From positions 11,053-75,052 of the forward strand of contig JABSRB010000020.1 in assembly GCA_013215375.1 (NCBI GenBank): 64,000 bases of DNA, written 5' to 3'. The notes below the pieces were generated by a model that was given only the letters and a program-made list of their open reading frames with translations, ran no database searches and had not been told where the DNA came from. This DNA is from Oceanospirillaceae bacterium. Lineage in GTDB: Bacteria; Pseudomonadota; Gammaproteobacteria; Pseudomonadales; Balneatricaceae. Below, in pieces: positions 32,055-60,383 of this stretch. Position numbers and translations under genes: made by a program. How positions within the stretch are numbered: the stretch's first letter is position 1; each line of letters begins with the position of its first letter.

Positions 32055-33881
32055 ATGGTTAAAGATCTTAATAAGTTACGCAATATTGCAATCATTGCGC
32101 ACGTCGACCACGGTAAGACCACCTTAGTAGATAAACTACTAGAGCAGTCTGGTACTTTAGATCGTCGCTCTGCTGGCGAAGAGAGACTCATGGACTCTAA
32201 CGATCAAGAGCGTGAACGCGGAATAACAATCCTCGCGAAAAACACCGCCATTGAATGGAACGGTTACCACATCAACATCGTTGACACTCCAGGCCACGCC
32301 GATTTTGGTGGTGAAGTTGAACGTGTAATGTCGATGGTAGATTGCGTATTATTATTAGTAGATGCTGTTGATGGCCCTATGCCACAAACACGTTTCGTGA
32401 CCAAAAAGGCCTTCGAGCAGGGCTTAAACCCAATCGTTGTTGTCAACAAAGTTGACCGTCCTGGCGCTGATCCAGACAGAGCAATCGATCTTGTTTTTGA
32501 TCTTTTTGACAGCCTGGGTGCCACCGATGAGCAATTGGACTTCCCCATTGTTTACGCATCAGCCCTAAACGGCGTAGCGGGACTTGAACACGAAAACTTA
32601 GCCGACGACATGACTCCTCTTTTTGAGGCAATTGTCAAGCACGTTAAAATCCCAGATGTTGATCTAGCAGGTAAATTTCAAATGCAGATCTCTGCATTGG
32701 ATTACAACAGCTACTTAGGCGTTATTGGTGTTGGTCGTATCCAGCGCGGCAGCGTCAAAATCAATCAAAAAGTCACTATCATTGGTGCAGACGGCACAGA
32801 GCGCAGCGGTAAGATCCAAAAGATCCAAGGCCACTTAGGACTTGAGCGCATCGAATTAGAATCAGCTCACGCCGGCGACATCGTGTGCATTTCTGGTATT
32901 GAAGAGCTATTTATCTCCGATACTCTCTGCGATCCAGAATTAGTAGAAGCACGTCCACCCCTTAGCATTGATGAGCCTACAGTCTCTATGACCTTTATGG
33001 TGAACAATTCACCATTCGCCGGTCAAGATGGAAAATTCGTCACTAGCCGTAACATTAAAGAGCGTCTAGAACGTGAATTAATCCATAACGTGGCACTTCG
33101 TGTTGAACAGGGCGACTCACCAGAGAAGTTCATTGTTTCTGGTCGTGGTGAATTACACCTATCTGTTCTTATCGAAACGATGCGTCGCGAAGGTTTTGAG
33201 ATAGGAGTATCTCGCCCTGAGGTAATCCAGCGTATTGTCGATGGTAAAATTGAAGAGCCCTACGAAGAAGTCACCATTGATGTTGAATCACAACATCAGG
33301 GATCTATCATAGAAGAGCTTAGCGCTCGTCGTGGCGACATGACTAACATGGAAGTTGATGGCGATCGTATTCGCTTAACTTTCATCATGCCTTCTCGCGG
33401 TTTAATTGGTTTCAGAAGTAAGTTCCTAACCATGACTTCTGGCACCGGCATCATGACTTCTGTGTTTGATCACTACGGCCCTGTTAAACAAGGCGAAGTT
33501 GTCTACCGTAAAAACGGTGTACTTGTCTCTATGGTGACAGGTAAGGCACTGGCTTACTCTCTTTGGACTCTGCAAGAGCGCGGTCGTTTGTTCGCCACGC
33601 CAAACATTGAAGTTTACGAGGGAATGCTACTTGGTATCCACAGCCGTACTAACGATTTAGCCGTTAACCCAATCAAAGGTAAGCAGCTAACCAACGTTCG
33701 TGCATCGGGTACTGATGAAAACATTCAGCTAACACCTCCTATCAATTACACTCTTGAGCAAGCGTTAGACTTTATCGAAGATGATGAATTGGTTGAAGTA
33801 ACACCTAACCACATCCGTCTGCGTAAGAAGATGCTGACTGAGAACGAGCGCAAGCGCTACTCTCGCTCTGGTAAGAAGTAG
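32055..33881 (+). CDS. typA: Translational GTPase TypA/BipA
   Basis: 608 aa. Motifs: [31 protein letters not shown]-like domain order. Confidence 0.96.
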
Positions 33882-33940
33882 TATAAGCTATAAGCTATAA
33901 GCTATAAGCTATAAGCTATAAGCTATAAGCTATAAGCTAT
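33882..33940. repeat. (TATAAGC)n heptamer microsatellite, ~8.4 copies
   Basis: A perfect tandem array that begins on the base immediately after the typA TAG stop. Confidence 0.95.
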
Positions 33941-34013
33941 TGCATATGTAGAAGAAGACGTGCAACAATGGGTGGATGATTGTTTATTGTTTCAAAAATA
34001 GCTGAAATAAGGG

Positions 34014-34056
34014 CACAAAAAAAGCGATGGCTGTGTAAACAGACATCGCTTTTTTA
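34014..34056. terminator. Bidirectional rho-independent terminator between typA and the convergent gene
   Basis: An A7 run, then GCGATGgCTGT-gtaa-ACAGaCATCGC, then T6. Confidence 0.75.
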
Positions 34057-34139
34057 TAGCTTATAGCTTATAGCTTATAGCTTATAGCTTATAGCTTATA
34101 GCTTATAGCTTATAGCTTATAGCTTATAGCTTATAGCTT
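34055..34139. repeat. (TATAGCT)n heptamer microsatellite, ~12 copies; reverse complement of the 33882-33940 array
   Basis: A perfect tandem array. It contains the last 7 codons and the stop of the minus-strand CDS 34117-34497. Confidence 0.95.
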
Positions 34140-34497
34140 CAAGCGCCTCTTGTGCCCAAGCGTTCTTCTCGCTCAAATATTTTAAAAGAGAGAGGGAAAG
34201 CACCTTAGCGGCATCCACCTCACTCCACATTGTTTTAGTCAAACAGCGCCAATGATCTACCTGCATATGCTTAGCTGAGCTCAAATTCTGCTCACAGGTA
34301 TCACAAATCATCAAGCAATGCTCTAACACAGGCTCCTTTGGTACGGGCTCAACTTCGTAAATATGCAGCGACACTGATGATGCTTCACACAGTTCACACT
34401 GAGATGAGCAGCGCCTAACTAAGTTTTTACCAAAATAATTTAATTGATCTAAACGCTCTTGTTTTTTACTTTGAGATTTCTTTGACAAAAGATACAC
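34117..34497 (-). CDS. Cys-rich zinc-ribbon protein (PhnA-like small protein family, tentative)
   Basis: 126 aa with CxxC pairs (CELCEA, CDTCEQ) and HWRCL..MWSEV. The family name is recalled from annotations of similar Vibrio and Pseudomonas proteins and is not verified. The C-terminal AISYKL* is encoded by the heptamer array. Confidence 0.55.
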   Translation of the reverse strand: MYLLSKKSQSKKQERLDQLNYFGKNLVRRCSSQCELCEASSVSLHIYEVEPVPKEPVLEHCLMICDTCEQNLSSAKHMQVDHWRCLTKTMWSEVDAAKVLSLSLLKYLSEKNAWAQEALEAISYKL

Positions 34498-34719
34498 CTA
34501 ACCAGATTGATGATTCATAATTCTAAGGCCCGTATCTGAATCAGATTCCGAGCCTATAATTAATACGCCCGCCTAACGCGTGCAACAACAAGAGTATAAC
34601 TTTGAGACCCGATGAGGTGTAGTGATTTTTAAGCGTCTAGTTTATGTTCTAGAAAAATACACTTTTGCGCACATTCAAAAAACCAATGAGACTTGAAAAA
34701 AGTAAAGAGAGGAAAATTT

Positions 34720-59928: not shown

Positions 59929-60102
59929 TTTCACAAAATAAAAGGCAGTATCTTTGTGAATATCCTTATGACAAGCTCAGCTCAGATTTACAGTTTTTAA
60001 TCCTTAGCTGATGTCTCATATATTTTTACTTTTTCCAGTTAAATCACCCAGAATATTAGTAATCAGCTACGAAGCCACCAACCCCTTGGATTACCGCCGG
60101 AG

Positions 60103-60200
60103 CAATTATCTAAATTGGCGAAGCGGAGCGACAGGACGTCGCGAAGAGCGAAGCTAGGCCATGGACGGCCTATCTGAGCGGCCGCCAATTTAGATAATTG
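60103..60200. repeat. 98-nt palindromic element: perfect 18-bp inverted repeat enclosing two short hairpins
   Basis: CAATTATCTAAATTGGCG (60103-60120) pairs with CGCCAATTTAGATAATTG (60183-60200). Inner hairpins: GCGAC-aggac-GTCGC (60128-60142) and TAGGCC-atggac-GGCCTA (60155-60172). Confidence 0.85.
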
Positions 60201-60383
60201 TGGAGGGATCTTTCGGGAATCGTTGGGCGAAATTTTCTTTGGTTCCGTTTCTTTTTTTCGTAAAAAGAAATGAACTCGACGCAGTCGAAACTGCACTTGA
60301 AACGGATTTTAGTTTTAGTTTTATAAGATACAAAGTTGACCACAAAAATCACTCTCTCTTAACGACAACAATGAGCCTAATCC

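Follow-up and report, generated by a model that had tools for sequence, protein, structure and literature searches.

Heptamers are over-represented among the long simple sequence repeats (SSRs) of prokaryotes (Mrazek, Guo & Shah 2007, as summarized in PMC4692102). In that summary, the class is characterized by perfect head-to-tail 7-nt units, dominance of period 7, an intergenic bias, and lineage-specific units, and slippage is proposed as its source (PMC4692102). The arrays described here resemble this class in all of these respects and differ from it in their units, which are AT-rich and take the form AGCT+3 or GACT+3. In Xanthomonas, the unit GGGAATC forms hundreds of intergenic arrays that often lie within 50 bp of stop codons or overlap them (Rehm et al. 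2015, PMC4692102). The Xanthomonas arrays are under-represented between divergent genes, their lengths are not conserved among close species, and roughly 70 nearby inverted (convergent) array pairs occur per genome (PMC4692102). The Xanthomonas unit and the Nostoc unit GGGGA(T/C)T are both G-rich and form G-quadruplexes (PMC4692102), which the unit at the locus analyzed here, TATAAGC, cannot do. Moreover, inverted pairs, which are common in Xanthomonas, are rare in the present genome (only 3 of ~18 neighboring array pairs), and, unlike in Xanthomonas and Nostoc, the pair has an origin that is traceable here to inverted host DNA.

Other described systems share some of these features. The cyanobacterial STRR sequences and the TAACTGA repeats of the Beggiatoaceae are, like the arrays studied here, heptamer direct repeats that are scattered through intergenic DNA, with a unit peculiar to the lineage and no assigned function (MacGregor 2015, PMC4679880). 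The TAACTGA repeats lie mostly just upstream of start codons, in 2–6 copies of one fixed unit (PMC4679880), whereas the present arrays lie at gene 3' ends, reach 16 or more copies, and use ~30 different units. Heptanucleotide contingency loci are known from the 7-bp repeats upstream of hmw1A and hmw2A in Haemophilus influenzae (PMC8262952) and from neuO of Escherichia coli K1 (PMC13001214). These too are slippage-prone, perfect 7-nt arrays in or adjoining genes. However, contingency arrays sit in promoters or 5' coding regions, where copy number switches expression, while those described here can alter neither proteins nor a promoter. Finally, REP and BIME elements likewise occupy gene 3' ends, especially between convergent genes; in contrast, the locus in question contains no REP-like element, and its sole palindrome is the native terminator.

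We found no earlier report in the literature of heptamer arrays in this lineage, the Nitrincolaceae/Oceanospirillaceae genus to which CP093399.1 belongs.

An inverted pair of heptamer arrays between convergent genes

The window is a 64,000-nt stretch of an Oceanospirillaceae genome (assembly GCA_013215375.1, contig JABSRB010000020.1). Within it, typA and a small gene on the opposite strand, here called gene X, converge on a predicted terminator that lies between two heptamer arrays. The features, identified with Tandem Repeats Finder (TRF), the ORF list, translation, and reading of the sequence, are as follows.

32055–33881, plus strand: typA/bipA, 608 aa, intact, native stop TAG at 33879–33881
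33882–33940, plus strand: array 1, (TATAAGC)x8.4, period 7, 100% matches, TRF score 118
34018–34055, no single strand: predicted bidirectional intrinsic terminator, A7, GCGATGgCTGT, GTAA loop, ACAGaCATCGC, T6
34054–34139, minus strand: array 2, on the plus strand (TTATAGC)x12.3, period 7, 100% matches, TRF score 172
34117–34497, minus strand: gene X, a small Cys-rich (CxxC...CxxC) protein of 126 aa
40214–40241, no strand assigned: (TTAGCTT)x4, the window's third heptamer array, belonging to the common AGCTAAA class

Both members of the pair are head-to-tail 7-nt repeats of more than three copies and are perfect throughout. The reverse complement of the array 2 unit, TTATAGC, is a rotation of the array 1 unit. 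Array 1 begins on the base that follows the typA stop, a gap of 113 nt (33941–34053) separates the arrays, and the first two T's of array 2 also belong to the T-run of the terminator. A preliminary description of this DNA had recorded the abutment of array 1 on typA (onset at 33882, ORF end at 33881), the reverse-complement units, the perfection of both arrays, and a bidirectional terminator between them, and in all of this it was correct. The two arrays that it placed here are real, with small shifts in position: the gap is 113 rather than 114 nt, and array 2 starts at 34054 rather than 34055. The third array, which is C13:51266–51293 in the genome-wide list, lies between two minus-strand ORFs.

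Read in the sense of gene X, array 2 is (GCTATAA)n and encodes the tail AISYKL followed by a stop; the protein ends ...AWAQEALE-AISYKL. The array does supply the end and the stop of gene X, as had been described, and its contribution is 2 nt of a Glu codon, six sense codons, and the stop instead of seven codons. One strand of the unit carries TAA, and the opposite strand carries TAG. As 7 and 3 have no common factor, all seven codons are read in every frame, which bears out the earlier statement that there is a stop in all frames on both strands. The first 23 nt of array 2 already contain the gene X stop, so that any copy number of ~3.3 or above yields an identical protein, and typA ends before array 1 begins. 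Slippage is harmless to both proteins, as the preliminary description held; it had allowed for changes to a few C-terminal residues, and there are none. In neither array does copy number switch a reading frame or the spacing of a promoter, as it does in phase-variable contingency loci.

The typA product is a TypA/BipA translational GTPase. It carries GTP_EFTU (2.3e-58), domain 2, EFG_C, and the BipA-specific C-terminal domain (BipA_C, 1.5e-45), all above the Pfam cut-offs, and its C-terminus, ...SGKK, gives it a length equal to that of its congeners' proteins. In a scan of genome contigs, TypA is 91–92% identical to proteins of Oceanospirillaceae/Nitrincolaceae metagenome-assembled genomes, of the Osedax symbiont Rs2, and of CP093399.1, none being closer than 92%. 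The genes of the neighborhood, by Pfam, are glnA, typA, a CN-hydrolase gene, and an aminotransferase gene.

Gene X matches no NCBIfam family, and its only match in Pfam is a weak one to the PhnA zinc ribbon (E = 0.006), which lies below the cut-off. Its orthologs in seven congeners end ...AWAQE(A/Y/C)LE(I/Q)(A/V)Y..(E/T)EQ(A/E)W(V/I)..W.L and are ~20 residues longer than the copy in the window. That copy lacks these ~20 conserved C-terminal residues and carries the array-encoded six-residue tail in their place. Gene X is conserved beside typA in the genus, and the lost tail is a conserved acidic/aromatic segment, ..EQAWVDEWxL.

The terminator at 34018–34055 consists of a hairpin with a U-run on one side and an A-run on the other. 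Its predicted 11-bp stem has one mismatch and a GUAA loop (−22.9 kcal/mol, z = −5.8). With an A-run and a T-run as flanks, the predicted terminator can act on both strands. A homologous A-run, hairpin, and T-run lies between typA and gene X in congeners, at a conserved position. Our scanner for consensus promoters and terminators did not call a terminator at 34018–34055 because of the single stem mismatch. A search of Rfam found no family at the array pair; elsewhere in the window, positions 60087–60213 (plus strand) match the TwoAYGGAY RNA (RF01731) with 55.3 bits against a gathering score of 43.

A gene end trapped between the arrays

The missing end of gene X can be found between the arrays. 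Two further features, identified by six-frame translation and DNA alignment, respectively, lie there.

33939–34001, plus strand: relic of the gene X C-terminus, last 20 codons plus stop, inverted, reading IAYVEEDVQQWVDDCLLFQK and then the stop
34002–34017, plus strand: relic of the short stretch that separates the gene X stop from the terminator, inverted along with its neighbors, AGGGCAC against AGCAGGC/AGGGTGT in orthologs

The coding relic lies outside any ORF, and its first 2 nt overlap array 1, forming the first of two novel junctions; the second is at 34138–34141. Against ortholog tails, the relic peptide attains a BLOSUM62 local score of 54, while 1000 shuffles score 21 ± 3.2 with a maximum of 39. 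When the DNA is aligned with the X-sense strand of three congeners, the entire 113-nt spacer is collinear with the orthologs: coding end, stop, spacer, and terminator follow in order. In the window, gene X is divided between the strands: its body lies on the minus strand, and its 3' end and terminator are on the plus strand between the arrays. The layout in which typA and gene X face each other across the terminator is present in 7 of 9 congeners. By these alignments, the 113-nt spacer is shown to be a piece of what would have been the ancestral locus, now inverted. The symmetry of the arrangement, which the preliminary description judged hard to explain by chance, is accounted for by this inversion.

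The arrays themselves fit together. If array 2 is reverse-complemented (AAGC-TATAAGC...) and placed after array 1 (...TATAAGC-TAT), the repeat continues exactly in phase, an outcome with a chance expectation of 1 in 7. Each novel junction includes 2 nt that could belong equally to the array or to gene X, the pattern expected when ends are joined through microhomology. The microhomology argument is weak because it needs an ancestral Ile codon, which only a single ortholog (L087) shares. The unit TATAAGC has no other occurrence in this genome, and its absence elsewhere argues for a common origin of arrays 1 and 2. The core sequences of the spacer likewise occur once in the genome. Metagenome contigs scanned for exact matches to the terminator core or the spacer yielded none.

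A genome-wide family that follows replication

We scanned the entire 5.0-Mb, 96-contig genome for perfect tandem repeats with a period of 2–15, at least three copies, and a length of at least 20 nt. Period 7 accounts for 147 of the 175 repeats. The units fall into two groups, AGCT+3 (AGCTAAA, AGCTCAC, AGCTACG, AGCTATA, and others) and GACT/GACC+3 (GACTAAC, GACTAAA, GACCAAA, and others). By crude ORF-based gene calls, all but two of the heptamer arrays (145/147) lie outside ORFs; on the same crude calls, 54 are in convergent gaps, 51 in co-directional gaps, and 6 in divergent gaps, against a background in which convergent gaps make up 16%. The genome shows the period-7 excess, and the intergenic bias with depletion between divergent genes, that mark the known class of long SSRs. 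The pair at typA is shown to be a member of this genome-wide heptamer SSR population. The results support the view of the preliminary description that these are slippage-type microsatellites, and they place the pair in a wider (AGCT+3)n family. The description had named uniqueness to this locus among the findings that would count against its reading; the arrays occur throughout the genome.

Arrays tend to sit directly at stop codons. A gene 3' end is faced by 96 array blocks, and 36 of them either overlap the stop or come within 5 nt of it, where 7.8 would be expected from uniform placement within the same gaps. Since abutment of stops is common genome-wide, starting just after a stop, or supplying one, is a rule of the family and no peculiarity of typA.

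The arrays are also oriented. Of 124 arrays, 109 have the orientation that matches the sign of the local GC skew (Fisher p = 2e-18), and for single units the agreement is 19:0, 14:0, and 19:3, with the A+C-rich reading of the unit on the leading strand. Beside lagging-strand genes, all eight arrays still have the leading-strand orientation, and between convergent genes the split is 45:6. Array orientation is mixed with respect to the nearest gene. Array orientation thus follows replication and not transcription. A polarity linked to transcription, in which UAUAAGC would be carried in a gene's own mRNA, was considered and rejected on these grounds. In the heptamer-repeat literature that we examined, we did not find a description of the replication-strand polarity and the stop-codon abutment measured here.

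Structure-forming repeats are known for orientation-dependent instability in lagging-strand synthesis. By analogy, the polarity of the arrays would fit an origin by slippage.

Arrays also lie at contig starts (C2:1–45, C7:1–76, C32:1–52, C52:1–75, C56:1–30, C63:2–44, C69:1–22, C23:21–84, C34:11–51, and C84:33–73). Assembly gaps appear to arise where arrays exceed the assembler's k-mer, and the arrays are probably longer in reality than in the assembly.

Turnover among relatives

Heptamers prevail in relatives as well. In a 400-kb sample of the congener G010, they make up 11 of 16 repeats, with AAGCTAT as the commonest unit. In a 400-kb sample of G013, which belongs to another genus of the same family, they make up 16 of 22 and use different units; the main one, AATCAC[GC], is polar, all nine of its arrays following the skew. 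The TATAAGC-type unit is balanced in G010, with 5 plus and 5 minus arrays in the positive-skew half of the genome and 3 of each in the negative half. The same congener contains a repeat hotspot of ~9 kb (C1:941300–949850, L137) with 16 separate arrays of the related units AAGCTAG, AAGCTGT, and AAGCTAT.

Individual arrays are not shared. None of the nine congeners has an array 3' of typA, and at two further loci the same array is found at the matching position in 0 of 10 orthologous congener loci. Judged from such comparisons, arrays turn over fast between species. In one gap, C38:32873–32985, the present genome has (AGCTAAA)x16.1 and the congener G011 has (GGAAGTT)x11.9 (L158, G011:C32 1331–1413). 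The presence of differing units in a single gap reflects either repeated colonization or replacement of the unit.

Composite intergenic elements

A dispersed REP-like palindrome, with the core ...CTCTGTGCCCTCGGTGGTAGA..TCTTTAAAAGA..TCACCACAGAGGGCACAGAG..., is present at no fewer than 94 loci genome-wide and is absent from the window. Examples are C34:22169–22463 (L149), C3:151675–151931, C21:10155–10410, and C40:6814–7233. An array lies within 120 nt at 48 of the 94 REP-like loci; conversely, 64 of the 147 arrays (44%) lie within 120 nt of such an element. A typical composite consists of (GTGAGCT)n or (AGCGGTG)n, a conserved module of ~60 nt, the palindrome, and (AGCTAAA)n. A second conserved module (AGTTCAANCYAAGYTAATCGATT...TTTTTTATTTACC) directly follows arrays of the GACT class; examples in which the arrays abut stops are C35:48367, C40:204, C69:8355, C9:57091, and C2:179141. 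This module is probably another part of the composite intergenic elements. Two neighboring Y1_Tnp (IS200/RAYT-type) genes, C66:7922–8251 and C66:10749–11075 (L091 and L092, 53 bits each), are possible mobilizers of the REP-like elements. The composites are not directly involved at the typA locus.

One inversion as the probable origin of the pair

From the arrays, the genome-wide family with its biases, and the spacer inversion, all of which are observed, we infer an order of events, a slippage origin, and a lack of function. Our reading, which we consider probable, is that the pair represents a single microsatellite cut in two by a local inversion, and that its arms are ordinary slippage-type arrays with no dedicated function.

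In the ancestor, a single (TATAAGC)n array of ~20 units would have spanned the distance from the typA stop to the A-run of the shared terminator. It would have occupied a position typical of the heptamer family in this genome and wholly replaced the spacer, which is 35–70 nt in orthologs. A single inversion of ~200 bp would have come next, with one breakpoint within the array and the other within the convergent gene X, between Glu-119 (GAA) and Ile-120 (ATT). The piece that flipped would have comprised the distal 12 units, the terminator, and the final 20 codons of gene X. Array 1 would be the part of the array that retained its orientation, and array 2 would be the flipped part. The outcome would be two inverted arrays, a typA left intact, and a gene X cut short at the flipped array, with the first units of that array providing the AISYKL tail and the stop. 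The terminator, because it is symmetric, would still work in both directions.

One such inversion would yield the inverted identical units, the relic beside array 1, the abutment of array 2 on the truncated gene X, and the in-phase fit of the arrays. From the sequences compared here, the single inversion is the simplest history of the pair. Against it, the final sequence is equally compatible with two earlier inverted arrays that recombined. Also, the AGCT+3 polarity rule of this genome fits array 2 and not array 1, the opposite of what the simple model predicts. The polarity rule does not identify the ancestral arm, given that the TATAAGC unit is nearly strand-symmetric and unpolarized in G010.

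As for the arrays at large, replication slippage is the most likely process by which they are generated and resized, and they are most likely tolerated only in dispensable DNA just 3' of genes. The typA pair probably has no dedicated function. Likely side effects of its presence are a longer typA 3' UTR, a double-stranded RNA stem in rare read-through transcripts, and an inverted repeat prone to recombination.

A broader version of the inversion hypothesis, which we put forward tentatively and regard as rather unlikely, makes the heptamer arrays of the family replication-polar fragile sites. Breakage within the arrays, followed by microhomology rejoining, would generate small inversions that remodel gene 3' ends, and inverted heptamer pairs, for example those of Xanthomonas, would generally be formed in this manner. 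The typA locus would be a case caught in the act because host coding sequence is trapped between the arms.

Alternative histories and functions

A different path to the same sequence starts from two independent arrays of a single unit, one located 3' of typA and the other in reversed orientation within gene X. Homologous recombination between them would then have flipped the spacer, which may still be flipping. Recombination between inverted repeats of 59–86 bp inverts the intervening DNA and would produce exactly the present sequence, and the junction sequences are identical in either orientation. Moreover, the unit repertoire is limited, with identical units found again and again at many unrelated loci in the genus. 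Yet this path requires at least two additional events. It needs the de novo birth of an array in the middle of a coding sequence, where no ortholog has a proto-repeat. TATAAGC is otherwise missing from the genome, and the exact in-phase fit of the arrays is not predicted. We therefore regard separate origins as quite unlikely. If the segment were an invertible switch, it would have nothing to act on, since a flip neither restores gene X nor changes the symmetric terminator. The locus has the inverted repeats of a fimS- or hin-type switch, but the cargo is a symmetric terminator and a dead gene end, a scan of 33700–34700 found no promoter-like site, and no recombinase gene is present among the neighbors listed above.

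An error of assembly is a further alternative: the short-read assembler could have mis-resolved the orientation of the spacer, the copy numbers, or both. A segment between inverted repeats is a classic case of orientation ambiguity, and the assembly is a 96-contig draft in which heptamer arrays as long as 76 nt form ten or more of the contig ends, indicating that arrays do break it. At 59 nt, however, array 1 is shorter than the ~77-nt overlap implied by the terminal arrays, and reads or k-mers should span from typA into the spacer. The assembly contains no contig with an alternative junction. Even with the spacer reversed, both arrays would persist and gene X would still be interrupted by array 2. 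An artefact is, on balance, very unlikely.

The preliminary description had proposed that the arrays form a cruciform in DNA or a long-range RNA helix that sequesters the terminator. In its functional form, the proposal is that the arrays are a selected structural device that adjusts how the typA and gene X transcripts terminate or how stable they are. The mutual complementarity it reported over ~59 nt is borne out: in the predicted RNA fold, the arrays pair over this length around the terminator (−141.5 kcal/mol, z = −12.3). Inverted heptamer pairs are also common in Xanthomonas, where formation of structures has been proposed (PMC4692102). But a strong predicted fold follows automatically from any inverted repeat, and a transcript that stops at the terminator holds only one array, so that the helix needs read-through. 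Cruciforms extrude from centers of a few base pairs, and the 113-bp spacer is far longer. With that spacer, and with the terminator off the center of symmetry, extrusion would be very unfavorable. None of the nine congeners has arrays here, and the device would have been formed at the expense of a conserved gene that is now truncated. The structural proposal goes unsupported by these data, and we consider a selected device highly improbable. The helix that read-through could form is more plausibly a target of RNase III than a regulator.

It is hardly credible, finally, that array, 113 nt, and inverted array together constitute a MITE-like element inserted between typA and gene X with heptamer arrays as its terminal inverted repeats, for although arrays flank the REP-like palindrome elsewhere and the genome has Y1-transposase genes, the interior is host DNA from this very locus, namely the 3' end of gene X, the spacer, and the terminator, its cores occur once in the genome and not at many loci as in REP, BIME, or MITE families, and the contig that holds the window has no REP-like match.

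Implications

Taken alone, the locus is an ordinary microsatellite that has undergone a minor structural accident, and no new biology is called for. The class of heptamer-dominated SSRs to which it belongs was already known (Mrazek 2007; Rehm 2015); the inversion of the spacer is the new result. The arrays of this genome account for many of the contig breaks in its draft assembly. From the side of the genes, the locus shows that heptamer arrays can truncate their neighbors. From the side of the arrays, the trapped gene end shows how a single inversion can turn one heptamer array into an inverted pair. Dominance of period 7, placement at gene 3' ends with abutment of stops, a near-absolute replication-strand polarity, and linkage to REP-like elements together provide testable constraints on the origin of heptamer repeats, a question that dates from 2007.
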